Shown here: piece by piece, positions 29,201 to 63,958 of the stretch
How the letters are laid out: the number at the start of each line of letters is the position of its first letter
Position numbering within the stretch: position 1 is the stretch's first letter
IMG/VR virus record: IMGVR_UViG_3300032053_018320
Direction: 5' to 3' (one strand)
Origin: an uncultured virus (IMG/VR IMGVR_UViG_3300032053_018320)
Lineage: Duplodnaviria; Heunggongvirae; Uroviricota; Caudoviricetes
Length of the DNA stretch: 64,000 bases
Notes under the pieces: generated by a model
The model's database searches: none
What the model saw: only the letters and a program-made list of their open reading frames with translations
What the model was told of the DNA's origin: nothing
Program-made: the position numbers and the translations under genes

Positions 29201-29575
29201 TTGTGTATGCCGCTACGAACCGATTGCTATCTTGCCGTGCTGAAACGATTCAAGGTGAAATATCCTACAGCCATTTTTGAACTCGTGCATCGAGCATCTG
29301 GAAGTGTGCTTGCCCCGAGTGTTGATTTGTTGATACGAACCGGAATATTCGCAAAGGCTGACGGAAGTAAAAACCCAAAAGATTTTGTCCTTTATCGTCG
29401 ATTGTATCGTGAACAAATATTGACAAATAAGATGGCTATGCAACGATTACGAGAATTAAAACAGATGGCTGAACGACAAGATATATTCTTGGTCTGTCTT
29501 GAAAAGGACCCAACGAATTGTCACCGAACACTCATCAAGGAAATGATAGAAGAATTACCTGATGAACAACGATGA
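29201..29575 (+). CDS. DUF488 family protein
   Basis: LAPS..LL, YREQI and LVCLEKDPTNCHR motifs. Confidence 0.8.
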   Translation: MCMPLRTDCYLAVLKRFKVKYPTAIFELVHRASGSVLAPSVDLLIRTGIFAKADGSKNPKDFVLYRRLYREQILTNKMAMQRLRELKQMAERQDIFLVCLEKDPTNCHRTLIKEMIEELPDEQR

Positions 29576-31512: not shown

Positions 31513-32871
31513 TTAATAGGCATCGGGTAACCGTTCACCCGATGGTCCAGTTTGCACGATGTCTTGATTACCAACAATTTCTCGACTGACACCAATTATA
31601 TCGACGACGTGATATCGATCTTCCAATTCATCCAGTTTCTCACGAAGGACATAGATGCCCTTGCGAATCATTTCTCGATGAGCCTGTCCAGCAGCATCGG
31701 TCTGGGTTCCAAGCATCTCGACAACAACTTCGATGATATACCCGGATTGAAGCAAGGTATCCATGACTTCCGTGAATGTTTGAGCGTCTGATTTACTGGC
31801 GCTCTGGATGTCATATTTCGTCAGTTTCAATTCCGTCATATCTTGACACTGCTTGATGACATAATCGAGCACGCGCTTCGTGGTCAATTCCGAGTTTCGC
31901 CATTCGATACGATTCTCGAAGATGAATCGATACTTGGAGATGATGGCACGAATTAACGAATATGCCTTTTCAACATACTCCTGTTCAACGATGATCTCTG
32001 GAGCGGCTCGTATTGTTGCTGGAGTCATATCCGATATTTTCAATACATCAGCAACTTTTATGATGTAATTGCTCAATTTATTATAAAGGGCTGCTAATGT
32101 TGGTGAAACATTTGCACTTTCGAGTTGTTGAATGAGTGTATTGAGATGATCAACATTATCGATTCGTAATGAAATCGACTCTTCATTGAGATAGAGTTCC
32201 GATAGAAAATGCTTGATACTCGTTTCTAAGGCATCGATTCTACCATTGTGGGTCGATTGACTAGGATAATACAAGGGCTTATAGGGCTTTCGATCACGAT
32301 CATCGGGAAAAACCATCAAGAACCGAGGTAAAAACCCAGACATAACGAAATCATTTCTCGCATATGTATCGAACCGATCATCGGTCGTTGCAAGAAACAT
32401 CGAAAAATACGGATTATCAACGATGATATCACCTTCACCGACCGTGTTTCTGGTATATGTATCATATTCTTCCCATAATTTACAAGCCACATCCATGAAA
32501 TTTGACATATACGAATTTTTACGAGACATTTTTGCCAATTCACTGCCGAATTCATCCTTCACATAAATTGCATGGGGTTTATCCTTCAGCGATTTGATCA
32601 ATGATTCCGGCGTTACTTCAAACGGTAACTCTGGAATATCCACTGCTCGTAAAATATTCATCATTCGCTTGATCGATGTCGATTTTCTCATTCGTGATGT
32701 TGGAGCGATGAAGAACACGAAAAAGTTGTGTTTTATCTCGACATTGAGCGGATTCTTGAAATTATTACCCATGCAACTGCCGATCATGAAGATTGCCTCC
32801 AATTTCGCAAACAGATCGGGTGCATCCGTGAAGTATGAATGATACTCAATAAAATCTTCAATTAAACCCAT
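31513..32871 (-). CDS. DUF3987/YfjI-like ATPase (putative replicative helicase-related) with C-terminal wHTH
   Basis: APTSRMRKSTS Walker A variant, EVTPESL, VKDEFG Walker B, GFLPRFL; GGTGA SD. Confidence 0.75.
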   Translation of the reverse strand: MGLIEDFIEYHSYFTDAPDLFAKLEAIFMIGSCMGNNFKNPLNVEIKHNFFVFFIAPTSRMRKSTSIKRMMNILRAVDIPELPFEVTPESLIKSLKDKPHAIYVKDEFGSELAKMSRKNSYMSNFMDVACKLWEEYDTYTRNTVGEGDIIVDNPYFSMFLATTDDRFDTYARNDFVMSGFLPRFLMVFPDDRDRKPYKPLYYPSQSTHNGRIDALETSIKHFLSELYLNEESISLRIDNVDHLNTLIQQLESANVSPTLAALYNKLSNYIIKVADVLKISDMTPATIRAAPEIIVEQEYVEKAYSLIRAIISKYRFIFENRIEWRNSELTTKRVLDYVIKQCQDMTELKLTKYDIQSASKSDAQTFTEVMDTLLQSGYIIEVVVEMLGTQTDAAGQAHREMIRKGIYVLREKLDELEDRYHVVDIIGVSREIVGNQDIVQTGPSGERLPDAY

Positions 32872-38102: not shown

Positions 38103-38360
38103 TTAAACGTCACATTCGCTCTTTCGTTGACTAATGGCTGTCAACAACGATTGTAAAGCGCACGTTGAAAGAATATCATAATCGAAGTTGTATCCACGAA
38201 TCATTTTCAACGAAAAATGAATATCGTTTTCTATTATTACTTCAGCACTACTTGCAGCGTCAAAACCAAATTGACTATCGATCTGATTTATAGTAAACTT
38301 GTGACCAAGTTTATCCATCAGTTTTCCGATGATTTCCGTTCGTTCGTAACTACTATTCAT
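38103..38360 (-). CDS. Hypothetical protein
   Basis: ATGA overlap with the ligase stop. Confidence 0.6.
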   Translation of the reverse strand: MNSSYERTEIIGKLMDKLGHKFTINQIDSQFGFDAASSAEVIIENDIHFSLKMIRGYNFDYDILSTCALQSLLTAISQRKSECDV

Positions 38361-40249
38361 TCTCCCACCATTTCAATGAATTTTTTCCACGAGATCATCT
38401 TGACACCCCATTCAGTAGCCTTGGCGATCTTGGCTGGTCCCGGTTTTTCACCAACTATCAAATAATCGAGGGACTTACCCGGTGACGACCAATTTCCACC
38501 GTGTTGCGTGACGAACTCTTCTACTTGGGACTTATCCATGTTCGCTACTGACCCGGTAACATAGATTTTCTTACCCGAGATTGGTGACCCCGTGGAACAC
38601 GCCGTTACCGCCTGTCTTCGCCGGATAAAGTGCATACGAACATATACGTTGCTTGGATCGCCGTTAGACTGAAACCACTCCACCATATTCCGAGCAGCGA
38701 CACTGTCAGGTCCCAACGCCCTTCGTATCACTTCTGGTGTTATCTGGCTAGGATCATCCACTTCACCCGCAACTGCCTTCGCGGCTTTAGGACCAATCGA
38801 AGGGATGTTGAGAGCCACCAAGAAGACATCGAATGGTATATCTTTGGCTGCTTGGATATTATCATAAATTTTCCCACCATTGATGCCGAATGTTCTCGTG
38901 AGATACAATTTGTCGAGTTCATACAGATCAGCAGCCGATTTTATTTTACCGTCGTCCCACAAGGCTTGAAGTGTCTTTGTACCCAATCCTTCCATACCAA
39001 CGGTTTGAACGAAATGGATGATACCTTGTAGTTGTGCCTCACCACAATTTTTATTTCGACACCACAACGTTACGCCGTCAAACTCTACTGGACCTCCGCA
39101 GACTGGACATACCTTGGGCAAGACAACGCTGTTTTTACCGTGACTGGCGACGCCCACGATCTTCGGGATGACATCACCCGACCGGACGATGAACACGGTA
39201 TCACCCACCGCGATTTTGTTGTCTAAAACGAATCGTGCATTGTGCATTGTCGCCCGTGAAATCGTCGCTCCAGACAGATCGATGGGGTTAACTTCAGCAA
39301 CTGGTGTAATTTTTCCAGATCGACCGATTTGCCACACGATATTCTTGATCATGGTCGAATCTTCTTTTGGCGGAAACTTCACGGCAATTATCCAACGAGG
39401 ATGATGTGATGTCTCACCCATTCTCGCTTGAACGTCCGGATCGTTCATCTTGAACACGAGTCCATCCATATCGAAGTCAAATGTATCACGACGGGATGTT
39501 ATATCGCTATACAATTCGATCATTTCCGATGGTTCGACGAGACCTTGATCTGCCGTGATAAATCCCATACGTTTCAAGTTCTCGATTTTCTTGACGTAGG
39601 TCATTGGTTTATCCTTGACAATTAAATCCCATGCCATCAATCGTAAGTTTCGTTGCTTGGTTAACGTTGCTTCTTTTAGATTCAAGGTGCCAGTTGCCAG
39701 ATTACGAGGTGATTTGAATTCTCCAAGAGTAACGAATGTGGATAGCGGAATGTATGCCTCTCCACGAACCTTGAACGGCGTCTTGATGTTAACCGTTCGT
39801 GGAACATCGCCCATGACCATTGCGTGCCTCGTGACATTTTCACCGATGAATCCGTCGCCACGAGTTGATGCACCGATTAGTCTGCCGTCAGCATAATCAA
39901 GGTTGACACTCGTTCCGTCAGCTTTATAACCCCACACGATCTCTTCATGATCTGCCCACGCAACCGCTTCATCGATATTCTTCACCTTATTTATCGACAA
40001 CATCGGTGGATCGTGAGTCACTCCGCCCTCGGTCTCGGCACCGACCATCGAAAGAACTTCGCTTTTTGGGCTAAGTTTTCTCAATTCTTCTTCGATTCTA
40101 TCATACTCTGCGTCTGACACTAACGGCGAACCAGCGTAATAAGCATCTTTATATTTCACGATGAGTGATTCTAACTCATCGATTCGCTTCTGCTTGGACG
40201 CATCGTTCTTGTCAAATTGCTCCAATTTTTTCTGCGACATATCATTCAT
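38357..40249 (-). CDS. ligA: NAD+-dependent DNA ligase
   Basis: YY..SDAEYD, KADG adenylation motif, TRGDG, VRGE, DGLVFK, RSGDVIP, C4 Zn finger, HhH and C-terminal BRCT. Confidence 0.95.
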   Translation of the reverse strand: MNDMSQKKLEQFDKNDASKQKRIDELESLIVKYKDAYYAGSPLVSDAEYDRIEEELRKLSPKSEVLSMVGAETEGGVTHDPPMLSINKVKNIDEAVAWADHEEIVWGYKADGTSVNLDYADGRLIGASTRGDGFIGENVTRHAMVMGDVPRTVNIKTPFKVRGEAYIPLSTFVTLGEFKSPRNLATGTLNLKEATLTKQRNLRLMAWDLIVKDKPMTYVKKIENLKRMGFITADQGLVEPSEMIELYSDITSRRDTFDFDMDGLVFKMNDPDVQARMGETSHHPRWIIAVKFPPKEDSTMIKNIVWQIGRSGKITPVAEVNPIDLSGATISRATMHNARFVLDNKIAVGDTVFIVRSGDVIPKIVGVASHGKNSVVLPKVCPVCGGPVEFDGVTLWCRNKNCGEAQLQGIIHFVQTVGMEGLGTKTLQALWDDGKIKSAADLYELDKLYLTRTFGINGGKIYDNIQAAKDIPFDVFLVALNIPSIGPKAAKAVAGEVDDPSQITPEVIRRALGPDSVAARNMVEWFQSNGDPSNVYVRMHFIRRRQAVTACSTGSPISGKKIYVTGSVANMDKSQVEEFVTQHGGNWSSPGKSLDYLIVGEKPGPAKIAKATEWGVKMISWKKFIEMVGE

Positions 40250-51474: not shown

Positions 51475-51969
51475 CTATGCTTCTGAGTCTGGATCGTTCA
51501 CGCTTTCATCTTCATACTCAATGTGAGTGCTTTCGTCGTTGTCAAAACCATGAATACCTTCTTCTGCTTCATACATTTCTGCAATCTCACCGATGGATGG
51601 TTCATGATTGCCTTCATCGTTATGTTCATCTCGTGAATCAAGGTCAATTGGTTGATCGTTGATGTCAACGATACTTGGCAGCACATCTGGTGTCCGGATC
51701 GACATACCAACGATATTGAATGTCTCTGCATCGTGAGAGTCACACCAGACATCGTTGATATTTATGCCGACTTTCATGATCGTGGCATCAAAACTTCGCC
51801 ATCCAGTATTCCCACAGTTACAATGGTAGTAAATCTTCTTTTCGATTGCATCGAATTTCATGACATTGGTTAAATCCAATTGACCGTGACATCGGTAGCA
51901 CGAGAATACTCCACCAGCGATGACCACATTGATAGTTTGGAAGATATTTGGCATCGATTTGCACTTCAT
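51475..51969 (-). CDS. Zn-ribbon protein with acidic tail ending VNDPDSEA
   Basis: CYRC...CNC.TGWRS; paralogue family. Confidence 0.8.
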   Translation of the reverse strand: MKCKSMPNIFQTINVVIAGGVFSCYRCHGQLDLTNVMKFDAIEKKIYYHCNCGNTGWRSFDATIMKVGININDVWCDSHDAETFNIVGMSIRTPDVLPSIVDINDQPIDLDSRDEHNDEGNHEPSIGEIAEMYEAEEGIHGFDNDESTHIEYEDESVNDPDSEA

Positions 51970-52108
51970 TCTGTCTTGATCGATATAGGATTCACGGAAA
52001 ATTTAAATGATTCGTTCGTTCACAAACGACGACATACACGATACGGGGAATCGTGCTGGCAGTGGGAACTTTTTTATGGTCATTTATGTTTGATTCCTAT
52101 CGATCATC

Positions 52109-52630
52109 ATGAAAAACTACAAAACTTTCACGAAGTTCCTTGAGTCGTCCAAAAACGACGATGAGTTTTCATTCGTTGGATTTTTCGACGATGCAGATGA
52201 TGCCTTGAAAACAGCATCGATACTATTGAATAACGATGAAAGTAGGCATCTATCGATGGTGATCGAGAAGATAGATGACATACTCGACTATATCAATGGG
52301 CATTCATCATTGTTGAGCGACGACGACCGAACACAATTGAAAACACGAACGATGGCTGTGCAAACCTTTTATGACCTACAGAACGAAATCATCTTCATCG
52401 ATGATTGGACTGGATGGATGCCCGACAAGAAGATCATTCGTCTCGAGCAGATACAAATAGTAGCACGGCACAAGCGAATCGTCATTCTGTTGATCGTCAA
52501 CCCACACGGTAACGAAAAACGATTATTTCCGATTAGTCACCTATGTGTATTCAATAGAAATGGCGAATCACTCATTTCATCGTATCATAAACACTTCTTC
52601 ACGAATGGAGATTGTGTGAAGGTGTGGTAG
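52109..52630 (+). CDS. Truncated paralogue of the 7720..9639 ATPase lacking Walker A
   Basis: DEFSF, ASILLNNDESR, IIFIDD, VARHKRIV and SLISSYHKHF align in order with the ATPase. Confidence 0.7.
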   Translation: MKNYKTFTKFLESSKNDDEFSFVGFFDDADDALKTASILLNNDESRHLSMVIEKIDDILDYINGHSSLLSDDDRTQLKTRTMAVQTFYDLQNEIIFIDDWTGWMPDKKIIRLEQIQIVARHKRIVILLIVNPHGNEKRLFPISHLCVFNRNGESLISSYHKHFFTNGDCVKVW

Positions 52631-52671
52631 TCATCGAAACCTTTATTTGAGTCTCGATGGAATGATCATTT

Positions 52672-53076
52672 ATGTCGTGTGAAATTTCATTGCCACAGGC
52701 AGTTGGCGAATATATAAAGACTCACGGGTGGGAATCCACTTATAACGAGAAAACCAAGATTTTCACCATCAAGGGATTATTTCTTACCCAGATACTAAAT
52801 AAATCACGAAGTAAAACATCGTTAGTGTCACTTGATGTTTATAGGGACGAAGATTATCTTGGTTACTTTGTAGATGTTCATATAAGTAATAAAGTAACGA
52901 AATCCGAAGATCATCATGAACAACAAGAGTTCACGACTAACGTAATAAATGATTTCGTTTCCCAGTATAACATTGGTGATCATACCACTTCTAACCAACT
53001 TGTCATCGATCATCTCGCTGATTTGCTTAAATTACTGAAGTTTTTCGATCGTGAAATACCCACATTGATCGATTAA
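52672..53076 (+). CDS. Hypothetical protein
   Basis: 134-aa ORF. Confidence 0.65.
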   Translation: MSCEISLPQAVGEYIKTHGWESTYNEKTKIFTIKGLFLTQILNKSRSKTSLVSLDVYRDEDYLGYFVDVHISNKVTKSEDHHEQQEFTTNVINDFVSQYNIGDHTTSNQLVIDHLADLLKLLKFFDREIPTLID

Positions 53077-53161
53077 TTAATCTACTTTTTTAAACCAGTG
53101 TGCTAACGAAAATCCCATTCACACGATAAAAAACAAAAAGAAGAGTTAAAAAATACCCAGA

Positions 53162-53710
53162 TTACGCTTCACTATTCGGGTCGTTCACATCGTCGCTCGA
53201 TGAATGATGGATAGGCGCTGGTTTCGGCGCTGGGCGAGCGGATTGAATCGGACGATGGGCTGGCGCCGGATGTTCCACGGGACGATCGTAATGAGGCCCT
53301 ATCGCATGATCATCATCCATCGCTGGCTGGACAACTGGCAGTTCAGGTTCATCGACCGCTTCTTGGGCATCCACGAGTGGCGACTCTTCATCGCTTGCCC
53401 ATGAAACTTCTTCGGGGCGCGGAGGCGCTGGAGCAACAACATCCGCCAACTCGGCTGGAGCACTGATCGATGGAATACTGATATCGAGACCCCTAAAGGT
53501 CCGGTATCCCGTATGATCATGATTATCACACGACTCATTTGGGCATTTATACACGAGACGGGCATTGAACAGGTCTATCTGGGTTATGTCTTTGCCCGAC
53601 AGTGGATAATGGCATCGATGGCAGGTGATTTTTCCCGCCACGATTTTTTCCTTCAATTGCATCGTTACCGATGCGAAGTCTTGTTCGCTGAACATTTTTC
53701 GACACACCAT
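53162..53710 (-). CDS. Zn-ribbon protein with Pro/acidic tail ending VNDPNSEA
   Basis: CHRC...CPNESC..TGYR; paralogue family. Confidence 0.85.
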   Translation of the reverse strand: MVCRKMFSEQDFASVTMQLKEKIVAGKITCHRCHYPLSGKDITQIDLFNARLVYKCPNESCDNHDHTGYRTFRGLDISIPSISAPAELADVVAPAPPRPEEVSWASDEESPLVDAQEAVDEPELPVVQPAMDDDHAIGPHYDRPVEHPAPAHRPIQSARPAPKPAPIHHSSSDDVNDPNSEA

Positions 53711-53881
53711 TTCGTTTTGACTTTGCGATTTGGTTTTTCGAACCGACCGACGACTGATTTCATCGGTCTAAAAGAATAATACTCAGCAGCATATATAATG
53801 CCTTCGGTGACTGACTAACAACTTGTTAATGGCTGACAAACAACACGATTCCGGCATAATATCACAGCAATTGAATCGTTA

Positions 53882-54442
53882 TTGATCGGTATGTTAAACG
53901 ATGGTATCGATGGTTCGATTCCTTTATCTGAAAGGGCGAGAATCATCATCCAGCACTCACTAACGGATGAATATCCGATGCCAAAAACGATCACGAAGGC
54001 AAAAAATATCAAGAAAACTGCTGCTTGTCATACGCCACCAATCGACATCTTTTCGTTAGGTCATTTTGCGTTTGGCTTAAACGTTGCTGGTGATTATCTC
54101 TTGATTTCATACTTCATGACGTTATCATTTCAATTTTCGTTAACGTTTTACGTTTGGTCATTGATTATAGGGTGGATTGTATCGCTTGCTGTCTTTACGT
54201 CATGGGAATTCATTGAACATTTATTTGTCAAGGATCACATCTATATAGCAAAACTAGGCAAGAAGGACTGGTGTGAAACGAGGATGAATTCTATCATGGA
54301 TGTTGTCGTCGCATTCATTGCGTTTAATGCCTATTATTTGCCACTATCCTTGTTCATGGATGAGTCAACGGTTGTTTGGACAGCATTCGTGCTATCAACG
54401 ATAATTACCATGATAGTAGCATTACACATAAGAAAAAAATAG
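53882..54442 (+). CDS. Multi-TM protein with H..WE..E..N..D putative metal-binding motif (DUF2585-like)
   Basis: LGHFAFG, SWEFIEH, ETRMNSIMD; likely start MPKT. Confidence 0.65.
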   Translation: MIGMLNDGIDGSIPLSERARIIIQHSLTDEYPMPKTITKAKNIKKTAACHTPPIDIFSLGHFAFGLNVAGDYLLISYFMTLSFQFSLTFYVWSLIIGWIVSLAVFTSWEFIEHLFVKDHIYIAKLGKKDWCETRMNSIMDVVVAFIAFNAYYLPLSLFMDESTVVWTAFVLSTIITMIVALHIRKK

Positions 54443-54448
54443 GAAATT

Positions 54449-54883
54449 TTAACCCTCGGAATGAGGATTATTGACATCGTCATCGTCGGTGTCTTCTTCG
54501 TCGGCGACTTCTTCTTCGTCTTCTTCAGCATCGGACTCGGTGGACAACTGATCGAAATCTGGTTCGTCATCACCTTGCCATTCGACTTCCTCTGGTCGTG
54601 GCGGTTCTGGTGCCTTGGTCTCGATGAGGTCGGCTGGCGGTAATATCGATGGAATGACGATCTCCACGGCCTTCAAGGACCGATATCCGGTTTTCCCGGT
54701 TTTCGAGTTGTTGCACATCTCGTTGGAACACTCATACAGAATACGACCATTGATAAGGTCGATCTGCTTGATATTCTTGCCACTCAGTGGAAAATGACAC
54801 TTATAACAGGTCACTTTGCCTTGAGCGATCTTATCCTTCAATTGAAGGACAACGGCGTTGAAATCTTCTTGGGTATAGGACAT
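54449..54883 (-). CDS. Zn-ribbon protein with acidic tail ending VNNPHSEG
   Basis: CYKC...CSNEMC..TGYRS; paralogue family. Confidence 0.85.
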   Translation of the reverse strand: MSYTQEDFNAVVLQLKDKIAQGKVTCYKCHFPLSGKNIKQIDLINGRILYECSNEMCNNSKTGKTGYRSLKAVEIVIPSILPPADLIETKAPEPPRPEEVEWQGDDEPDFDQLSTESDAEEDEEEVADEEDTDDDDVNNPHSEG

Positions 54884-55074
54884 TTTTTATGCACCATCGT
54901 TCCGTTCGTTTTAAACTTTGCGATTGGAATAATGCGACCATTTCGGTCTAAATAGATAATGATCATTCTGCCCTTTAAGTATTTTCATTCACGACAAACA
55001 CAAAGCACAGACTGATGTGCAACCAAATCATGAGTAACGATTCCTATCAGTAGCACGGCACTATTGGGTAAAAT

Positions 55075-55329
55075 TCATAGTTTTGTCATTCCCGTGTGGC
55101 GTTTCAAGAAATCGTCGATGAACCGTGATATATCCTTGAATTGCGGTTTATTATGTTGTTCGCACGATTTATTCGTGCATCTAACTTCGATCCGCCCTTC
55201 GTTAACATCGAGTCCCGTGAGTTGTGTTATTTTCATTCCGCATTCTTTACATTTGATCAGTCCGTTCCTTGCCGATCCGCCGATTTCCGTCAAGAATGCT
55301 ATTTGTAACACATCATCTTCATCAACCAT
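55075..55329 (-). CDS. Zn-ribbon protein (tail-less family member)
   Basis: GLIKCKEC...D...GRI...CTNKSC. Confidence 0.7.
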   Translation of the reverse strand: MVDEDDVLQIAFLTEIGGSARNGLIKCKECGMKITQLTGLDVNEGRIEVRCTNKSCEQHNKPQFKDISRFIDDFLKRHTGMTKL

Positions 55330-55410
55330 TCATACCAACTCCACGGGAATCATGATATAGACAATCGACCACGGTTTCATGATGCTTCACGACCAAAAAA
55401 AAATGAGTGA

Positions 55411-56703
55411 TTAACAAACATCATCGACATAATCCTTCGGAGCGAAGAACGGACATTTCATTGCTTCACTTTTATCCATTTCATATCCAAACGCATCGCA
55501 TTCGACTAATCCAGTCCGTATTCGCAAGAGCAACTCTTCTTCGTTTTCTATATCAGCGCAACTATCACAATCAAAGCAGGTTACATCCGATCTGTTTTTT
55601 CGCTTGATCTCGACCTCGTTGGTTATGAAGTCATCGATTAGTTTCTCGCTTGATGTATCAACAGTCGATGGAGTATTATTCCATTGCTTCATCCAAGACT
55701 CCTTATCCTGTTTCTCCTTTTCTCGTTGCTTACGACGGTTTTTCTTACTGCCGTGATATCGATGCTTCTTTTTGCCGGGCTGACTCGCTGGTTCATCGAC
55801 AAACAATGGGGTAGCAGTTACTGAAACGTTGGTTCCGGGCAACTGAGATTGAGTTGTACCTTTTCGCACCCACTTTCCACCTTGCGACTTCTCGAAGTCA
55901 CCAAGATCAACATCAGAATAATCGAACATTTCACGCTGAACGGTGAATGTCGGCAATGCTTTTGTCGCGAGCCATTCCACTTTCTTCTCCTTGGTCGAAA
56001 GGTCAAATCCAATGACGACTTCATTATTGACTTCTTCCCACCGTTTTACCTTGCTACCACGTTCGTTTACTGCATTAGGCTCTGCTTGCATTATATCGCT
56101 AGTCGATGCAAATATCAATGTTTCAGTTTCTGGTAGTTCTTCAAAAATCAACGGACTAGTATTCGACTTGCAAAAAACGACCTCGCTCGTATTCGCAGCA
56201 ACGATGACACTTGAATTATTCTTCGTGCATCGTTCAATGTCTTCAAAACTAGCCTTGATGGCTTGATATAAGGTTTGCTCTTGATTGGCAGCAAATGCTT
56301 GACTGATGGCTTCGACAAAGATAAATGTATCCGTATTTTCCGGCACTTTATCGTATTTTTTGCAGTTGACAACACCATTATGAACCAACATAAAACTCTT
56401 ATCGTTTGGCGCTAATGGATGATTATTGATGTTGTTCTTAGGATCACCACGAGTCGCATGACGACAATGACCGATAAGATAAGTTACACCATCAGCCTTT
56501 GCTTGTTCGATGAAACTAAGATACTTCTCTGCAGTCACGAATATCGATGATGGTAAGGGTGCTTTGAGCATTCGCATACTTGATGCAAAAACGCCAGTCG
56601 CATGAGAGCCTCGTTGTTGAGCGCGGACAAGCATCTCCGTGAACTTCTTGAAATGCCACTCTGTCAAACCAGAGTAACAAACCACGCCGATTATCCCACA
56701 CAT
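55411..56703 (-). CDS. Class II glutamine amidotransferase (Ntn hydrolase) with C-terminal Cys-rich domain
   Basis: True start MCGIIG at 56703 (TGATG overlap); RG.HATG, GHCRHAT, NNHP and HNG motifs. Confidence 0.9.
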   Translation of the reverse strand: MCGIIGVVCYSGLTEWHFKKFTEMLVRAQQRGSHATGVFASSMRMLKAPLPSSIFVTAEKYLSFIEQAKADGVTYLIGHCRHATRGDPKNNINNHPLAPNDKSFMLVHNGVVNCKKYDKVPENTDTFIFVEAISQAFAANQEQTLYQAIKASFEDIERCTKNNSSVIVAANTSEVVFCKSNTSPLIFEELPETETLIFASTSDIMQAEPNAVNERGSKVKRWEEVNNEVVIGFDLSTKEKKVEWLATKALPTFTVQREMFDYSDVDLGDFEKSQGGKWVRKGTTQSQLPGTNVSVTATPLFVDEPASQPGKKKHRYHGSKKNRRKQREKEKQDKESWMKQWNNTPSTVDTSSEKLIDDFITNEVEIKRKNRSDVTCFDCDSCADIENEEELLLRIRTGLVECDAFGYEMDKSEAMKCPFFAPKDYVDDVC

Positions 56704-58022
56704 CAATATCCCCTCACGAAGGTTTCCCAATTGATCTTGCGATACCGACCATTTGGCGGAATGACCACTTCATGACCGAAATAGAGATACGCATCTTGGT
56801 ATCGTTCCGCTTCATCGTCAACATACAGTCGACGATAGAGTTCATCGATATCCCAAATAAGATTAGCGGGCACCTTTTCAAGGTCGATGAAGTCCGAATA
56901 CATTTGCATCACCTTGCCGAATTTCAATGGTGACTCCATCTTCGTTTTCATGAATCGCCGGCACATCATTCTAAACAAATCGAGAGCCGTTGAGTAGATT
57001 TTATCGTCACCATCCTTGTCGCTGCCCTTCTTCTTCGCTCCACCACAAAGATATGGAATGCCCCGACCTTCGACAAACTCGATCTTCTTCATGAGAGCCA
57101 TCGCCTTGTAGATGTCATAGTTTCGAAGCAAGTCCCAAAATTCAGGTATTCGAACGTTCCAATCCTTGAGTTTGATCGACTCATTGCGAAGCATACAAGC
57201 ATTATTGAACACTCCGAACAGTTGAACCGCTGGAAGGGTCCAATATGGGTGATTTTCAACGAGACGATTTTCAATGGTCACGGCTCGTTTCGTATGCCTA
57301 TTCCAAGCCAAAGCCGAATACGGATGTCCCATGGTCAAGGTCGTATGATTTCCCTTGGTCGTTGTCGTCGTTCCAGTCGAAAATAATTCGATGATATTCG
57401 ACGGCTCAACACGAGCGACTACCGGAATTGCCCATTGAGTTAAGGCAGAGTTGCGAAATCGTTTTCCAAACGACCAAAATATAGCGGTTAATGGTTGCCA
57501 GGTCATCATGTCGTTGAACAGGATAGCCCATAAATTCGCATTACCGACCCGCTGATGGTCGAAACTATCACCGAGGTCGAGTTCTCCACGAACACTCCAG
57601 TGGATATGCGAACCACAGCCCCTTCGTTCATTGTTAAAATAGAACTCTTTTGCCCACACCCACTGGTCAGTTCCAACGACCTGATTGAAAATACGGAGTA
57701 TTTCAATTTCTTGGCTCGAGTGAGGAGTCTGCCACTCCCACGGCTTGCTTCCATCCCAATGACCGCCATAGATGGATGATCTCGCTTTAACGGCTTCGGG
57801 AACATAGATCGGTAGATTGGTAGGATTATCATTAACGATGATCGGCTTTATTGGACCATTACCCATCGCTGGCTGTTCAATTTCCATACCGACTGAGCAC
57901 GGCTTTCGTAAGAATTTATCTTCGCCATTGACCTTTTTTGAATGGTCTTGCTCGCTCAACGAAACGAATTGAGCATTAATTTTTATTTCTTTTCGGTTAG
58001 CAGTATTTAATCGAAACGACAT
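56703..58022 (-). CDS. Putative amidoligase (COOH-NH2 ligase, glutamine-synthetase-like fold)
   Basis: GMEIE, WEWQTP, GCGSHIH and TIENR motifs; coupled to the GATase. Confidence 0.8.
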   Translation of the reverse strand: MSFRLNTANRKEIKINAQFVSLSEQDHSKKVNGEDKFLRKPCSVGMEIEQPAMGNGPIKPIIVNDNPTNLPIYVPEAVKARSSIYGGHWDGSKPWEWQTPHSSQEIEILRIFNQVVGTDQWVWAKEFYFNNERRGCGSHIHWSVRGELDLGDSFDHQRVGNANLWAILFNDMMTWQPLTAIFWSFGKRFRNSALTQWAIPVVARVEPSNIIELFSTGTTTTTKGNHTTLTMGHPYSALAWNRHTKRAVTIENRLVENHPYWTLPAVQLFGVFNNACMLRNESIKLKDWNVRIPEFWDLLRNYDIYKAMALMKKIEFVEGRGIPYLCGGAKKKGSDKDGDDKIYSTALDLFRMMCRRFMKTKMESPLKFGKVMQMYSDFIDLEKVPANLIWDIDELYRRLYVDDEAERYQDAYLYFGHEVVIPPNGRYRKINWETFVRGY

Positions 58023-58112
58023 TTTTCATCATTCACCATCATTGTTTACAAGATAATGGACTCGACGAAAAATTTAAAACTTTCCAACGGAAACAAACCG
58101 CGTTGTTAGTGG

Positions 58113-58322
58113 TCATGAGTGTTTGCCCTTGATCAGATTCCACACATCTTTTCGTCCGATAAGCCATTCTACCAAAGCCGAACGAGTCGCCTCGGCAATC
58201 GATGACACGATTCCGTTGTCCTTGAGGTCTCGAAGGATGTTATAGTAAGCAATGGGCAACGTTACACTGATCGACTTGGCTTTCGTCTCGCTCGTGGACT
58301 TTTTGGTTTGTGACATCATCAT
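58113..58322 (-). CDS. Ribbon-helix-helix (CopG-like) regulator
   Basis: KSISVTLP....L..L...G...S.AEA.R.AL. Confidence 0.85.
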   Translation of the reverse strand: MMMSQTKKSTSETKAKSISVTLPIAYYNILRDLKDNGIVSSIAEATRSALVEWLIGRKDVWNLIKGKHS

Positions 58323-58341
58323 TCACTGATGATTACCGTTT

Positions 58342-59559
58342 TCACGATACTGCGGCTGGTTTATTGGCTTTCGTGACCATTGTTGCTAATTTTACACGAG
58401 TTTCGTCTTTATTCTTCTTGATTGCTGGCCCCAAGATGAAGAACCGCGACAATAATCTGTGCATCTGGATGTCTGGCGTTGCACCTTCGGCAATACATTT
58501 ATCAGTATCGCCTAATTCTGCCAATAAATATGCCTTTGAAACATTTGGCATACCGACATCAAACGAACCATCAGCACGCTTGATCGTCTCTGGATTCGAT
58601 GTTATTAAGTCCTTTAACGAATCTAGAATCATTCGCTCATCGACACCATAGGCATTGACCAGATCATCGTATGAACTGAATGCAGCATTGAGATCGTTAT
58701 CCTTGAATATCGCCTTGAGAATTTTCTTGAGATCGGACTCAATTTCTGCTTGTTCCGGCATTGTCAAGGTCTTTTCGATGATGTTTTGCTGGAGCAGATT
58801 GATCAGATCACGAGGCTTTCCTTTGGCTAATGGAATGATTGCTGCGAGTATTTCATCCGTGAAAACGATCTTTTCGCTTTGCAGAATGAATTCTCCATAG
58901 TTCGTCAATTCGTCGTTGCTCAACGGTTTTAGACGATAGTTCATGCACCGTGACTTAATGGCTGGAATGATCTTTCGATCATAATTGCAGCAAAGGATGA
59001 ACACCGCTTCACCAGTTCTTGTATAGTCTTCGAGCACTCGTCGGAATCCAAATTGCATCGCTGCACTCGCTGCATCAAATTCATCGAGGATGATCACTTT
59101 CTTACCAGAATAGATGGTGGATGCCTTACAAAAAGGAATTATTTCGTTCCTTAACACTTTTATACTGCCAAACGCTGATGCATTGATTGATTTGATATTT
59201 TGGACAACACCACCAGAAAATATTCTTGCCAAAATGAATGCAATGGTAGTTTTACCTATACCTTCCTTACCAGCAAGCAATATGTTTTGCACAGATTCAG
59301 ATCGTGCGAGAGCCTTCATCTTTTCGATGATGGTCTTATTTCCCCTCACTTCTTCGAGGTTCCTTGGTCGATACTTTTCCGTCCACGGCGCAGCGTTTTT
59401 CTTTTGTTTTGGCGCTTGTTGAGCCGCTGGTTTTTCCGCGGATGGCTTCTGACCAACAGGTTGTTCTTGAACTGGTTGTTTCGACATAGGTTTATCCGGC
59501 ACAAGTTTTTGTTGTGCTGGTGCTTTTTGTTTTCCACGAGATTTAGGTCGTTCGCTCAT
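58342..59559 (-). CDS. rfcS: Replication factor C small subunit
   Basis: PWTEKYRP, GKEGIGKTT, INAS, IILDEFD, IIPAIKSRC. Confidence 0.9.
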   Translation of the reverse strand: MSERPKSRGKQKAPAQQKLVPDKPMSKQPVQEQPVGQKPSAEKPAAQQAPKQKKNAAPWTEKYRPRNLEEVRGNKTIIEKMKALARSESVQNILLAGKEGIGKTTIAFILARIFSGGVVQNIKSINASAFGSIKVLRNEIIPFCKASTIYSGKKVIILDEFDAASAAMQFGFRRVLEDYTRTGEAVFILCCNYDRKIIPAIKSRCMNYRLKPLSNDELTNYGEFILQSEKIVFTDEILAAIIPLAKGKPRDLINLLQQNIIEKTLTMPEQAEIESDLKKILKAIFKDNDLNAAFSSYDDLVNAYGVDERMILDSLKDLITSNPETIKRADGSFDVGMPNVSKAYLLAELGDTDKCIAEGATPDIQMHRLLSRFFILGPAIKKNKDETRVKLATMVTKANKPAAVS

Positions 59560-60860
59560 TCGTCATCACTATCAGTTTCGGTTTCGGTTTTGTTGGTTTC
59601 CTTCTCTTCTTCGTCTTGTTTCAATTTAACACGAGGATATTGCGGTCGCAAGCCTTTTAACGGAGAAACAGGTATACCGAACGCTATTAATCCCCACACA
59701 TAATCAGTATCTGTCTTGAATTTAAGCGCTTCTGCCTTCGTTAAAATATCAAACGAGTCTCTTATTTGACTAACATTATCATAATACGTTAACAAATTAT
59801 TCGCTATATAGAACATCAACGTTGTCGGCGATAAGTATGTTTCGTCACACAACATTTCGTATAACTCATCTCGATCATCCATCGTGAAGACGAGATATGT
59901 GAACTCCATTGGCTTATGCACTTCAACAATATCGAATGATTCCCCACCAACGAGCATATGCTTCGCAGTTCTAACATCTCCACGGGAATCTACGATGAAT
60001 TGCTTGATTTGATCCGTCGTCGGGGCGAGAGCAACATCGAACTCCGGCTCTGGTGAATCGAAATACTTAAGTGAATACAGTTCCATTAGACTTTGTAATT
60101 CATACTTCTCTGGATGATCAAATTTGATCAATGTTACTCGATCATTTGAACGAATACGAATATCCACTCTGTCAATGAAGTTACAAATCATGACGATTGG
60201 AACACGAGATCGTTTTGATAACTTTCCGATGAATGTTTTTGCAGCATTCGTTAATGTTTTCTTTTCTTGGTCGATACCAATAATTGCTTGTTGACACTCC
60301 TTCAAACTAGGACCGATCAAGTCGATCAAATAATTCGTTCCCGTCTTTGATAAATTATCCATTTCGTCGAATACGAGCAACGGTGGATCGCCAGACAACG
60401 ACATCATTTTGCCAGCACCACTGATCGTTTTCAACATTTCAGTTAAAGTTCTCGTGTCAGATGCGTTGATTTGAGTCATCGCGAACCATCGTTTCATCCT
60501 CGTGATAAACGATGTTTTTCCGACTCCAGCATCGCCATAGAGAAGGATATGTTTCCGTGACTCAATTTTCTTATTTGCGATCATGACTTCGTCGATTCCA
60601 CTTTTTGTGAGCAAAATATCAAGTATCATCGTTTTCTGAGCATAATTACCGACGTGAACATCGTCTGCAAATTCCGGATCGGTCTCTATGACTATTTTAC
60701 GAATGATATGCTCTGCCAACTTTGGATATTTGAGTAACAACGCATTAATCATCGTATCCTCGATTATTTTGTTGTCACGGCAATAAAGATAAAAATCACC
60801 CTTATCAACTGCTGACAATGCGTCAGTTAACCTTGGATCATTTGGCTTAACTACAGACAT
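59556..60860 (-). CDS. rfcL: Replication factor C large-subunit-like AAA+ ATPase
   Basis: LLYGDAGVGKTS, INASDTR, DEMDNL, PIVMICN, RGDVR; coupled to rfcS. Confidence 0.8.
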   Translation of the reverse strand: MSVVKPNDPRLTDALSAVDKGDFYLYCRDNKIIEDTMINALLLKYPKLAEHIIRKIVIETDPEFADDVHVGNYAQKTMILDILLTKSGIDEVMIANKKIESRKHILLYGDAGVGKTSFITRMKRWFAMTQINASDTRTLTEMLKTISGAGKMMSLSGDPPLLVFDEMDNLSKTGTNYLIDLIGPSLKECQQAIIGIDQEKKTLTNAAKTFIGKLSKRSRVPIVMICNFIDRVDIRIRSNDRVTLIKFDHPEKYELQSLMELYSLKYFDSPEPEFDVALAPTTDQIKQFIVDSRGDVRTAKHMLVGGESFDIVEVHKPMEFTYLVFTMDDRDELYEMLCDETYLSPTTLMFYIANNLLTYYDNVSQIRDSFDILTKAEALKFKTDTDYVWGLIAFGIPVSPLKGLRPQYPRVKLKQDEEEKETNKTETETDSDDE

Positions 60861-61230
60861 TTAACCACCGACGATCATAAACATATCATGCACAATATAA
60901 AAGTTTTTCCCATATTGATTGCTCATGGACTATCCATGAATGGTTCATGAGCGAATTGTGCTGATACTACAAAACGCTGTCACGACTTACCCATCATTAT
61001 ACGTTAAAAAGACGAAAGACGATCCCTCACACGATTCACCGATCAGTCTCACTGAACGGTCGATGAATATAAAAAGAACGGAATTGCTAATCCGTTCATT
61101 GACGATAATTTAAGCGAAATTCAAACCTTCATGGAAAGTATTGACCACGAAACCAAGTATGAAAAAGAGGGGTTTGGGCTTGTCGGTGGTTTGGGTCATT
61201 TTAACTCTAAGGGAATGAACGAATCAATCA

Positions 61231-61247
61231 TTTTTAAAGGTTTCGTT
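61231..61247 (-). promoter_or_regulatory. Archaeal BRE-TATA promoter
   Basis: Minus strand AACGAAACCTTTAAAAA. Confidence 0.5.
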
Positions 61248-61391
61248 ATAGACGCTATTATACAGCAACACAACATTCTGACAAAAGGATTTGATTAACT
61301 CGTGAACCCGTGAATATTGGTATAATTCTGTGTAATGATTAAAATAGGTGATAGGACGTCGGACGAAATGAAAAAACAAATGATTGACGAA

Positions 61392-61694
61392 TCACGAACA
61401 CGTTGTTTCCTTAGCCACCATATCCTTTGCAGCGGAAACCATTTCAGTGAGCGTTTTTACGCTACACTCAGCCAATGCTACGCCGTCAAATTCTACATCT
61501 TCGGATTCAGTTGGTCCAATGATGCCATTTTCAACGAATACTCCTAATAAGATCAATCCACGAGCGACAAGAGCAGGTTCTTTATCACAGACCATATCAA
61601 ACAATCGTTGTTGTAGGTCTTGGTCCCTATCGTGGTTTTCTTGATATTCCTTGACGAGTTGTTCGATTTCGTCGATCAATGTTTGTTTTGACAT
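61392..61694 (-). CDS. Hypothetical protein
   Basis: 100-aa ORF. Confidence 0.65.
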   Translation of the reverse strand: MSKQTLIDEIEQLVKEYQENHDRDQDLQQRLFDMVCDKEPALVARGLILLGVFVENGIIGPTESEDVEFDGVALAECSVKTLTEMVSAAKDMVAKETTCS

Positions 61695-61814
61695 AAAAAC
61701 ACCATTTTCATACTAGATGACTATCATAACTATCGTCCATAGTTCATGATTAAAGAAGGATCACTCTTTGACCAATATAAAGATTTTTCACGAAAAAAAG
61801 AAAATGTAACCTGC

Positions 61815-62180
61815 TCATTCGCTGAGTGACTTACCCTTTTCATGAAGAAACTTCTCTAACTTCTTGATGTCAAACCGAAAATATTTACTGTCAAAGTCAC
61901 TCGTTATCCTAACAAATCCCTTCTTGAGACTGACCATTTGAATGTCTCCACTCATCTTGTAGAAGTAACACAAGATTTGCTTGAGTCCTTCATCCAGATC
62001 GTCCCACGATTTCATGGTCGTGGTGATAACTTCATCGACAGTTTTGCCATCTTTGTCATCATACTCGACGATGACTCGGAACTTCTTCTCGTGATGTAGT
62101 AAATCAAATACACCCATCGATTTGAGTTTCTTTATGTCTGCATCAGATATTTCGATAGTTTCTTCTTCGTTGATTTGCAT
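61815..62180 (-). CDS. Hypothetical protein
   Basis: GGTGA SD upstream. Confidence 0.7.
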   Translation of the reverse strand: MQINEEETIEISDADIKKLKSMGVFDLLHHEKKFRVIVEYDDKDGKTVDEVITTTMKSWDDLDEGLKQILCYFYKMSGDIQMVSLKKGFVRITSDFDSKYFRFDIKKLEKFLHEKGKSLSE

Positions 62181-62208
62181 CGTTTGTTCACCTTCAAAAA
62201 ATAAAAAA

Positions 62209-62682
62209 TTACTCGAGTAATGCCGGAAAACGCTTCACGATCTCCTTGTCTTGCTTGATGACATCGATCCATTCATCCGTCCACGACGAATCGATATGGG
62301 CTCGTTCGATGGTCATATCGGTAGGGACATATATCCACGCTTCACCATCAGTTCCATCGTCTTCAACCATCTGCACCTTGATGCGAGTATAGAGATCGTT
62401 GGGTTCATGATAATATCCTTCGTAACCATCCATACCCTTTAAGTCGTTTTTACTGACTTTAAATGCCAACGTCTTGACTTCTGCGTTCTCGTCCGGAATG
62501 ACGAATGGAAACCACGTAACGCCTTTTTTGAACACACGACGATATCCCTTGACAGTTACCGTCCGCACGTTTTGCTTACCACGAAACATCCATTTCGTGA
62601 TGAATGTTCCATATCCGATAACAACTTCCAATTGCTCGTTAGTTGCCGTTTCAGCAACTTCGCTTTCATCATCTTGAGTCAT
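62209..62682 (-). CDS. Gamma-glutamylcyclotransferase (GGCT/AIG2-like)
   Basis: GYGT, GYRRVF, MDGYEG, LY.R..V and AWIYV motifs. Confidence 0.85.
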   Translation of the reverse strand: MTQDDESEVAETATNEQLEVVIGYGTFITKWMFRGKQNVRTVTVKGYRRVFKKGVTWFPFVIPDENAEVKTLAFKVSKNDLKGMDGYEGYYHEPNDLYTRIKVQMVEDDGTDGEAWIYVPTDMTIERAHIDSSWTDEWIDVIKQDKEIVKRFPALLE

Positions 62683-63107: not shown

Positions 63108-63692
63108 TCAAGGTTGTTCATGGAGCCCGCGAGAGTCCTTTTCGAGAAAATTGGCAATAACGAATAAATCCACCGCGGCGTTCCTCACTGCTTGAAATTG
63201 CATTTCGTTGATATATCGTCTCCATTCTTCAGCATAACGGATGAATTCTGCTATTTCGTCGGCAAGCAGTTCATCCGTTCCACATTTATCGAGATTAACC
63301 TTCAGCGATTCACCCTTGCCAAATGCCTTGAACAACCATTCATAAGCATCATTCAACGCGTGAGTGGTCGACGGTTCGTCTTCACCGATCATACCATATC
63401 CTTCTATGGTAGTAAACGAGTCATCGAGTCTATCGAGCGCATCATCGATTTCTTTACTATGTGCATCTGCCCACACATCGCAAAATTCTTGTTCTGCTTC
63501 TTGCATCTTGATCTTGAACTTCAACTCTGCTCGTTCTCGTGCACGAGCAGCCGCTCGTTCTCGACGACGTTGCACCTTTGCTGCTTCAACGTCAATCTTC
63601 GCCTGTTCACGCTTCTTGATCTGACGTTCGTTGAATTCTTGATATTGACCGATGATGTCTTTGTCTGGTTGTGTAGGCATAGGAAATTTCAC
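63108..63692 (-). CDS. Hypothetical protein with charged coiled coil
   Basis: 194-aa ORF. Confidence 0.7.
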   Translation of the reverse strand: MKFPMPTQPDKDIIGQYQEFNERQIKKREQAKIDVEAAKVQRRRERAAARARERAELKFKIKMQEAEQEFCDVWADAHSKEIDDALDRLDDSFTTIEGYGMIGEDEPSTTHALNDAYEWLFKAFGKGESLKVNLDKCGTDELLADEIAEFIRYAEEWRRYINEMQFQAVRNAAVDLFVIANFLEKDSRGLHEQP

Positions 63693-63958
63693 TTAATGGC
63701 TTCACACGAGCCTTCTTCGAGTTCCTTCTTCAATTCCTCGAGTTTATGCTTATGTTCCATCTCTTGAACGGCGAGAATTTCTTTCAAGACGCTCGCGATG
63801 ATAGGATTTTCGATGTCTTCTGCCGCCTTGAGATACATATCGATTGCCTGGTCTTCATCATCAATGGCTTCATTCAAGAACGCCAATAATTCTTTTTTAT
63901 TCATGATTTGTTCACCCAACATACGCATGTTCAAGTGTTGACTCTGAAATATGGTCAC
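63689..63958 (-). CDS. Small ferritin-like (rubrerythrin half-domain) protein
   Basis: L.EAI.DE..AI.MY...E..EH di-iron pattern; likely start MNKKEL after a GGTGA SD. Confidence 0.75.
   Translation of the reverse strand: MTIFQSQHLNMRMLGEQIMNKKELLAFLNEAIDDEDQAIDMYLKAAEDIENPIIASVLKEILAVQEMEHKHKLEELKKELEEGSCEAIK

Follow-up and report, generated by a model that had tools for sequence, protein, structure and literature searches.

What does the enzyme pair encoded in this locus act on, and does it recognize the neighboring Zn-ribbon proteins, three of which share a short C-terminal tip? Amidoligase-GATase(-GGCT) sets are common in phages and were reportedly predicted by comparative genomics in 2009; to our knowledge, no substrate has become known for them since. 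The locus, located in a 64,000-nucleotide stretch of an uncultured Caudoviricetes virus (IMG/VR IMGVR_UViG_3300032053_018320; "the window" hereafter denotes the whole stretch), is a variation on this already known cassette. A sequence-only reading had proposed a pupylation-like set of writer, processor, eraser, and tag, and the open reading frames (ORFs) of the region on which it drew were all found where it had placed them, on the minus strand. The features of the region are as follows:

51475..51969, minus strand: Zn-ribbon protein 1 (ZnR1), 164 aa, acidic tail ending SVNDPDSEA
51478..51501, minus strand: conserved C-terminal tip of ZnR1, last 8 codons
53162..53710, minus strand: Zn-ribbon protein 2 (ZnR2), 182 aa, Pro-rich/acidic tail ending DVNDPNSEA
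53165..53188, minus strand: conserved C-terminal tip of ZnR2, last 8 codons
54449..54883, minus strand: Zn-ribbon protein 3 (ZnR3), 144 aa, acidic tail ending DVNNPHSEG
54452..54475, minus strand: conserved C-terminal tip of ZnR3, last 8 codons
55075..55329, minus strand: Zn-ribbon protein 4 (ZnR4), 84 aa, CxxC...CxxxxC, without acidic tail
55411..56703, minus strand: Ntn class II glutamine amidotransferase (GATase), 430 aa, basic linker and C-terminal Cys cluster
56703..58022, minus strand: ligase, 439 aa, GCS2/YbdK-like carboxylate-amine ligase of a family without a Pfam model
58113..58322, minus strand: 69-aa protein directly upstream of the ligase
58342..60860, minus strand: RFC-type clamp-loader small and large-like subunits (Pfam, PHROGs, NCBIfam), between ligase and GGACT
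62209..62682, minus strand: gamma-glutamyl(amine) cyclotransferase, AIG2/GGACT family (GGACT), 157 aa (PF06094, PHROG 2520)

The ligase had been called a COOH-NH2 ligase, a name that its fold and invariant residues uphold but that finds no echo at the sequence level. It possesses the catalytic fold common to the GS/GCL/GCS2/PafA superfamily, and in an alignment of 62 sequences residues E96, H139, H141, R190, E251, and R253 are invariant while E47 and E49 are kept in at least 90%; the motifs ExE, HxH, and ExR presumably serve metal and ATP binding. No Pfam model matched it even at E ≤ 10, including Amidoligase_2 (PF12224), COOH-NH2_lig (PF14395), and GCS2 (PF04107), nor was there any match in PHROGs, NCBIfam, or PDB sequences, and the same three Pfam models gave zero matches among the 31 relatives scanned. 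Viral amidoligases are its neighbors in structure comparison only, with a phiCh1 protein being the best structural match in BFVD (E 2.1e-7). The family comprises 74 representatives among 1.84 billion proteins, and the close clade is present in only 7 clusters. For the closest relatives with solved structures the substrate is free glutamate, which counts against recognition of a protein tip, while the fusion of the ligase to a C-terminal Cys-rich domain in two family members, one of which ends NNPVDEED, counts for it. The 69-aa protein upstream matched no Pfam, PHROGs, or NCBIfam family; a similar 70-aa protein, the likeness being judged by eye, occupies the same place in the related locus L002.

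The Ntn identity assigned to the GATase was supported by its N-terminus (MCGIIG), which places the Cys nucleophile right after the initiator Met, and by HCRxAT, HNG, and TDT blocks that are invariant in 3/3 aligned relatives, as are Cys2, R81, N109-G110, and D125; we take the Arg, Asn-Gly, and Asp residues to form the glutamine site. The start reads MCGI[IV]G in the window, L002, and L003 and MCGI[LV]G in L001 and L004. The protein matches PHROG 4736 (2.4e-16), scores slightly below the 27-bit cutoff of Pfam GATase_6 (25.4 bits), and hits the NCBIfam GlmS N-terminal domain at 9.7e-15, far below the whole-protein cutoff. Residues 301 to 360 contain 15 K+R among 60, and Cys residues follow at positions 376, 379, 382, 402, 417, and 430. 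As had been read from the sequence, the GATase is translationally coupled to the ligase, whose stop shares one base with the GATase start (TGATG), and it directly follows the ligase in all five loci that reach past the ligase stop (the window and L001 to L004, from four lineages). Such strict 1:1 coupling would be less natural, we infer, for a writer paired with its own eraser than for a synthase-glutaminase complex. The amidotransferase reading is not secure, because EgtC and other class II GATase-fold proteins that stand alone are hydrolases.

The GGCT noted at 62209 also stands, with a PF06094 score of 49.5 bits (7.9e-13) against a curated cutoff of 22.8 and a PHROG 2520 match at 1.4e-13. 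It lies 4.2 kb from the ligase with two clamp-loader genes between, and the C-terminus of RFC-small was also observed upstream of the ligase in L002. By analogy with podoviruses, the GGACT is probably part of the same gamma-glutamyl/glutamine-centered cassette. Its proposed role as eraser was not supported: GGCT/GGACT chemistry requires the gamma-glutamyl unit to have its alpha-amino group free, and GGACT is chemically awkward as a tag eraser because a peptide-bonded Glu does not offer this.

Gamma-glutamyl amides are common to the enzymology of the ligase, the GATase fold, and GGACT. A tenable alternative, albeit short of probable, is that the cassette acts on small gamma-glutamyl/glutamine-type compounds or cell-wall-type peptides, with gamma-glutamyl amide bonds being made by the ligase and cut by GGACT and the GATase-fold enzyme; the tails would then be unrelated short linear motifs binding another viral or host factor, e.g., a replisome part, like SSB-type acidic tips. 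The region is embedded among clamp-loader genes, and the closest cultured-phage relatives of the GATase, retrieved by tblastn (64 records, about 25% identity), belong to PaP3-like, phiEco32-like, and Pseudoalteromonas podoviruses, with those of PaP3, ECBP2, and HP1 residing in amidoligase-GATase-GGCT cassettes beside replication genes. Such podovirus cassettes are read, in at least one account, as peptidoglycan modification or recycling (PMC5498523). Moreover, two haloarchaeal viruses, phiCh1 and ChaoS9, have the pair but lack a Zn protein with such a tail, which favors action on small molecules and counts against tip recognition. However, the alternative leaves the ligase-Cys-rich-domain fusions unexplained, and the second COOH-NH2 ligase and RimK-like ATP-grasp of the podoviruses were absent by Pfam from the 73 window proteins scanned, among which divergent versions could escape.

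The evidence for protein clients comes from the Zn-ribbon genes, which had been described as four paralogues following the pair. Three are paralogues (BLASTP E 3e-12 for ZnR1 versus ZnR3), but the paralogy of ZnR4 is marginal (E 3e-4 versus ZnR3) and three plus-strand ORFs interrupt the run. These ORFs and the gaps set the Zn-ribbon genes apart from the pair, with which they need not be co-transcribed, a point against tip recognition. The three tails do end VN[DN]PxSE[AG], as first noticed (VNDPDSEA, VNDPNSEA, and VNNPHSEG). Their acidity was borne out by D+E counts of 26/84, 21/102, and 28/64, whereas "disordered" had been deduced from composition only. ZnR2 is held in the sequence collection with Met6 as its start (177 aa). 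The ending.SE. occurs in 3 of the 675 stop-to-stop frames of at least 40 aa in the window, namely, ZnR1 to ZnR3 only, and across all DNA examined the tip motif was detected in 4 of 1,161 frames of at least 60 aa, all four being Zn-proteins near the pair, and in none of the other 1,157. The tip codons of ZnR1 to ZnR3 differ at synonymous sites, with TCA, AGT, and TCC encoding Ser; therefore, what is conserved is the peptide, and recent copying of the DNA does not account for it. Around the fixed 8-residue tip, the linkers differ freely in both length and sequence. Population variants agree in kind: the two in the ZnR1 tip are both synonymous, and the ZnR2 tip has none, while 9 of 12 in its upstream linker are nonsynonymous.

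Co-occurrence of the tip with this ligase clade in other contigs, a test set beforehand, was positive in L003, whose ligase is 39% identical to that of the window and whose Zn-protein directly after the GATase ends DDGDSEI. That Zn-protein has no detectable homology to the Zn-ribbons of the window (hhalign E 0.11, BLASTP E 1.1), and a 77%-identical homologue of it keeps the ending. In addition, the contig of a 52%-identical ligase (P0003) has the same size (207,961) as that of two Zn-ribbon homologues, and one of the latter (P0011) ends GDNPDSEE. The last tip residue thus reads A, A, G, E, or I. Counted on the other side are L002, which has the pair but no tail protein within 430 nt after the GATase, and the homologue P0010, in which the motif is degenerate and internal (DVDDPTTD, then 12 more residues). 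The tip-positive lineages are few, numbering three, all from a small set of metagenome relatives.

It appears improbable that nothing more than common descent or composition lies behind the shared tip and that its place near the ligase is a coincidence of genome order. The three window proteins are indeed paralogues, acidic tails make D/E-rich endings likelier, and just three lineages are informative; nevertheless, this explanation must contend with linkers that diverge around a fixed tip despite saturated synonymous sites, with the 0/1,157 background, and with the nonhomologous Zn-protein of L003. The last observation is also left unexplained by action on small molecules.

The pupylation-like proposal, in which the ligase activates the tail Glu, perhaps after trimming, and joins the whole Zn-ribbon protein to target lysines with the GATase as processor and GGACT as eraser, is in our view very doubtful. 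The acidic, low-complexity tails with a conserved Glu near the C-terminus, the variable last residue, which is compatible with trimming, and the co-occurrence with the ligase in other lineages all speak for it. Pup, however, ends GGQ or GGE with a terminal Glu, whereas here Glu is penultimate, GGQ/GGE is absent, and no trimming peptidase was identified. PafA is not the closest fold to the ligase, no window protein matched the Pup or Pup_ligase HMMs, and the window showed neither a target nor a receptor (e.g., a proteasome or Mpa-like ATPase). Moreover, the GATase keeps its free-glutamine-binding residues, GGACT could not cyclize a Glu with a peptide-bonded alpha-amine, and the supposed tags are Zn-proteins of 144 to 182 aa with diverged domains, unlike a uniform tag. 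The gene identities and conserved tails of the original reading and the co-occurrence it called for are upheld, whereas a Pup-like position of the Glu and the eraser chemistry are not supported. A virus tagging system joining the tip Glu to host or viral amines, with several paralogous tags bearing different Zn-ribbon heads, is improbable; if true, chemistry resembling pupylation would have arisen independently outside Actinobacteria, with an Ntn GATase as the processing or ammonia-donating partner.

We tentatively favor the explanation that the tips are recognized in some way by the ligase-GATase pair, because the tip is conserved despite synonymous scrambling and recurs on the L003 Zn-protein without detectable homology. 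At the conserved core would be an enzyme encoded by two genes, in which an Ntn class II GATase is translated together with a GCS2-like carboxylate-amine ligase that depends on ATP; in this clade the pair would have dedicated Zn-binding protein clients, each presenting on a long flexible acidic linker the tip [DN][PG]xSE plus one variable residue. The ligase would phosphorylate a tip carboxylate (that of the conserved Glu side chain or the alpha-carboxylate at the C-terminus), and the coupled GATase would free ammonia from glutamine to turn it into an amide, the reverse of the deamidation of Pup by Dop. Within tip recognition, covalent modification of the tip, by amidation or otherwise, is somewhat unlikely taken singly, amidation with glutamine as the ammonia source being what we infer to be the likeliest chemistry; rather unlikely is docking only, in which the unmodified tip would tether Zn-ribbon "adaptors" to the enzyme.

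In the Zn tip proteins, whose C-terminal peptide is short and strongly conserved, the locus supplies concrete substrate candidates, and these proteins may be the protein partner of a widespread viral enzyme pair. The tip recurs with the pair in three lineages, two carriers mutually lacking detectable homology, and a word search of the open-access literature found no paper that ascribes a Pup-like tag or a conserved C-terminal tip to these cassettes. Moreover, a ligase family without a Pfam model is defined and tied to phiCh1 and ChaoS9, two cultured viruses of haloarchaea that are open to genetic work.

Comparison with known systems places the locus among several partial likenesses. As in the podovirus cassettes (PaP3/LUZ24-like, phiEco32-like, and Pseudoalteromonas HP1/RIO-1), amidoligase and class II GATase genes are immediate neighbors, with a GGCT nearby, here at 4.2 kb, and replication genes around; in those cassettes, however, the small proteins next to the GATase have no common C-terminal motif, which counts against tip recognition, and neither PaP3 orf46 nor orf48 is significantly related in sequence to the window ligase (hhalign E 0.06). 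The proteins phiCh1 ORF41 and ORF42 and ChaoS9 gp45 are true members of the ligase family (62-sequence profile, hhalign E 2.9e-49 versus ORF41 and 5.4e-19 versus ORF42). In these haloarchaeal myoviruses (Vertoviridae), a class II GATase (ORF40 and gp44; probability 93.7%, E 2e-7) directly follows the ligase as in the window, although it is a bare 191-aa Ntn domain, has no adjacent Zn-ribbon tail protein, and has no GGCT annotated in the region. The pair is uncharacterized in both record annotations, as are gp45 and gp44 in the table of the ChaoS9 paper (PMC6471424).

Compared with YbdK/GCS2 ligases and gamma-glutamylcysteine ligases, which lack its partner GATase and viral context, the window ligase has an extra C-terminal helical region and no GCS2 HMM match. 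PafA/Dop belong to the same ligase superfamily, and their client Pup, like the proposed one, is of low complexity with Glu near the C-terminus, yet the window tails end SEA, SEA, and SEG (SE plus one variable residue), and the partner is an Ntn GATase rather than a Dop paralogue. The window pair, whose amidation activity is putative, combines GS-like and class II folds, unlike MurT, which has the fold of Mur ligases, and GatD, a class I GATase. Nevertheless, the MurT-GatD bi-enzyme complex, described as amidating peptidoglycan (PMC5871853), joins, as proposed for the window pair, an ATP-dependent carboxylate-activating subunit and a separate glutaminase subunit in one complex.

The 439-aa ligase and the Ntn class II GATase are translationally coupled, the stop codon of the former overlapping the start codon of the latter in the sequence TGATG, and they share the minus strand with four Zn-ribbon proteins (ZnR1 to ZnR4) and a GGACT. 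A promoter and terminator scan gave no clear operon limits, with 26 promoter-like sites observed versus 16.4 expected.

Features of the ligase-GATase region
51475-51969, minus strand: ZnR1, Zn-ribbon protein with a tail ending VNDPDSEA
52109-52630, plus strand: ORF between ZnR2 and ZnR1, no family match
52672-53076, plus strand: second ORF between ZnR2 and ZnR1, no family match
53162-53710, minus strand: ZnR2, Zn-ribbon protein with a tail ending VNDPNSEA
53882-54442, plus strand: 186-aa ORF between ZnR3 and ZnR2, hydrophobic by eye, no family match
54449-54883, minus strand: ZnR3, Zn-ribbon protein with a tail ending VNNPHSEG
55075-55329, minus strand: ZnR4, Zn-ribbon protein without a tail
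55411-56703, minus strand: Ntn GATase (PHROG 4736, 2.4e-16; NCBIfam GlmS N-terminal domain, 9.7e-15)
56703-58022, minus strand: ligase, 439 aa, assigned by predicted fold
62209-62682, minus strand: GGACT (Pfam, 49.5 bits against a cut-off of 22.8)
Remaining minus-strand genes of the region: a 69-aa protein, two RFC-type clamp-loader subunits and two unknown ORFs

The ligase matched no Pfam family even at an E value of ≤10, no PHROG or NCBIfam family, and no PDB sequence with either the single sequence or a 62-sequence profile, while an amidoligase-type Pfam domain was found in none of the 31 relatives scanned. The family is rare, with 7 clusters among 5.8 billion proteins and 74 representatives in 1.84 billion proteins at E ≤1e-3, 10 of them at ≤1e-30; no relatives were obtained from searches of viral contigs or genome contigs, nor from tblastn against GenBank phages. 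Its fold was assigned from a model built on 62 aligned sequences (pLDDT 90.6, pTM 0.90); the model from a 7-sequence alignment (pLDDT 50) was unusable. Foldseek returned 25 PDB matches at E ≤1e-3, and those listed were all PafA, Dop, gamma-GCS, GshF or glutamine synthetases, while ESM Atlas gave GCS2 clusters at 0.93 and, by structure, viral amidoligase clusters. Together with the residues invariant across the 62 sequences (E96, H139, H141, R190, T249, E251, and R253), these results bear out the fold proposed in the sequence-only reading, and the modeled enzyme is best described as GCS2-like and not specifically PafA-like. Two family members, P0051 (634 aa) and P0034 (588 aa), are fused to C-terminal Cys-rich, Zn-finger-like domains, and one of these fusions ends in NNPVDEED. 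Among the BFVD matches is, likewise, an amidoligase-like protein of an uncultured phage annotated as "LIM domain containing protein."

A GATase beginning MCGI[ILV]G lies directly 3' of the ligase in all five loci that extend past the ligase stop codon (the window and metagenomic loci L001 to L004, representing four lineages); L005 was left out of this count because its sequence stops within the ligase. The window GATase scored 25.4 bits in Pfam, just under the cut-off of 27, and its alignment shows that the glutamine-site residues are retained. Residues 301 to 430 comprise a Lys/Arg-rich linker (15/60 residues) followed by a C-terminal Cys cluster that is kept in L002 and L003, and the adjoining of this basic stretch and the highly acidic tails of the putative clients is suggestive. 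Upstream of the ligase, L002 also encodes a 146-aa Cys-rich protein (446-886) between an RFC small subunit and a 70-aa protein; it lacks the tip motif and has no equivalent at the same place in the window.

The three tailed Zn-ribbon proteins are paralogues whose linkers are unequal in length and sequence, being acidic or Pro-rich (D+E 26/84, 21/102, and 28/64 in ZnR1 to ZnR3), and the last eight residues, here called the tip, are conserved. The tip codons differ at nearly all synonymous sites, with Ser encoded by TCA, AGT, and TCC, indicating that the tip is kept by selection on the protein. In contigs of other sediment runs, where numbers were small, the two variants in the ZnR1 tip were both synonymous and the ZnR2 tip had none, while 9 of 12 changes upstream of the ZnR2 tip were non-synonymous. 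Across all DNA compared, the pattern [DN][PG].SE.$ occurred in 4 of 1161 frames of at least 60 aa, and all four were Zn-proteins near the ligase-GATase pair. The Zn-ribbon domain itself yielded no leads in ESM Atlas. Immediately C-terminal to it, the sequence APxPPRPEEVxW is common to ZnR2, ZnR3, and the metagenomic homologues P0010 and P0011 but absent from ZnR1, and may be a further short linear motif. In addition, a depth spike with many loose contig ends was seen in all four runs at 54482-54615, a GAn-rich segment that encodes the acidic tail of ZnR3 and is also picked up as a 15-base tandem repeat; the spike probably reflects unrelated acidic-tail genes mapping there.

The tip recurs beside the pair in some relatives, a co-occurrence that the sequence-only reading had proposed to test. 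In L003, whose ligase is 39% identical, the GATase is followed immediately by a gene for a multi-CxxC protein of 192 aa without detectable homology to the window Zn-ribbons; this protein ends in DDGDSEI, an ending kept in a 77%-identical homologue. Likewise, P0011 ends in GDNPDSEE, and the source contigs of P0010, P0011, and the ligase P0003 are all 207,961 bases. The association did not extend to P0010, in which the motif is degenerate and internal (DVDDPTTD, then 12 more residues), or to L002, where the pair is present and the remaining 430 nt hold no tail protein.

These observations suggest, tentatively, that the tip could be recognized by the ligase-GATase pair. The favored chemistry would be glutamine-dependent amidation of a tip carboxylate, since the strict 1:1 coupling is consistent with a synthase-glutaminase complex and the GATase retains its glutamine-site residues; this proposal is weakly grounded, as class II GATase-fold proteins that occur by themselves can be hydrolases. 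Alternatively, the Zn-ribbon proteins may act only by docking, as "adaptors," a reading that we still entertain. The sequence-only reading had instead envisaged a pupylation-like system, with the ligase as writer, the GATase as processor, the GGACT as eraser, and the Zn-ribbon tails as tags. We consider this improbable: the tip Glu is penultimate, the closest relative of the ligase is not PafA, and GGACT is not known to act on Glu whose alpha-amine is in a peptide bond.

The contig, of ∼309.5 kb, occurs in several sediment metagenome runs, and nearly all window ORFs lie on the minus strand. Only 10 of the 73 window proteins scanned had any Pfam match; two ORFs, 1879 and 1021 aa long, had no matches, no capsid or terminase gene was recognized in the window, and no tRNAs were found in positions 1-64000.

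Other annotated features of the window
17195-18037: Rce1-like protease
29201-29575, plus strand: DUF488 protein
31513-32871: DUF3987 primase/helicase
38357-40249: NAD-dependent DNA ligase
63689-63958: rubrerythrin-like protein

The RFC small subunit is nearer to archaeal RFC (1.3e-56) than to DnaX (3.5e-26), and the ligase family includes haloarchaeal virus members, but the DNA ligase is of the bacterial NAD-dependent type; thus, the earlier description of an archaeal mobile element is plausible at most.

Among those haloarchaeal viruses, an uncharacterized phiCh1 protein was the best BFVD structural match to the ligase (E 2.1e-7). In hhalign comparisons with the family profile, phiCh1 ORF41 and ORF42 gave E values of 2.9e-49 and 5.4e-19, and the two form one 355-aa protein in the corrected genome record. 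The following phiCh1 gene, annotated as "putative glutaminase," matches the window GATase alignment (probability 93.7%, E 2e-7), and ChaoS9 carries the same ligase-GATase pair as phiCh1 and the window, its ligase homologue being uncharacterized in the table of the ChaoS9 paper (PMC6471424). Both ligase homologues (phiCh1, L010:2216-3283; ChaoS9, L011:2216-3289) have short acidic tails ending in EEA (TADTAEEEA and PAEEAEEA), and the metagenomic member P0055 ends in AEAEA; an E-x C terminus was rejected as a general family trait, being found in only 7 of 79 members.

By tblastn, the window GATase matched 64 phage records, all at ∼25% identity, from PaP3/LUZ24-like, phiEco32-like, and Pseudoalteromonas podoviruses, while the GGACT had no match among GenBank phages. 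Small proteins encoded in the podovirus cassettes were compared for a common C-terminal motif, and this idea was rejected, none being present there. Section 16 of PMC5498523 interprets these cassettes as serving peptidoglycan modification or recycling. A possibility to which we give the same weight as to tip recognition by the pair is that the window cassette acts on small gamma-glutamyl compounds or on cell-wall peptides, with the tails binding something else. In PaP3, ECBP2, and HP1, the GATase adjoins an "amidoligase," the surrounding genes include those for a GGCT, another COOH-NH2 ligase, and a RimK-like enzyme, and the set lies alongside a primase/helicase. No ATP-grasp or second ligase was detectable among the 73 window proteins scanned, while a ligase, a GATase, and a GGACT are all present in the window.
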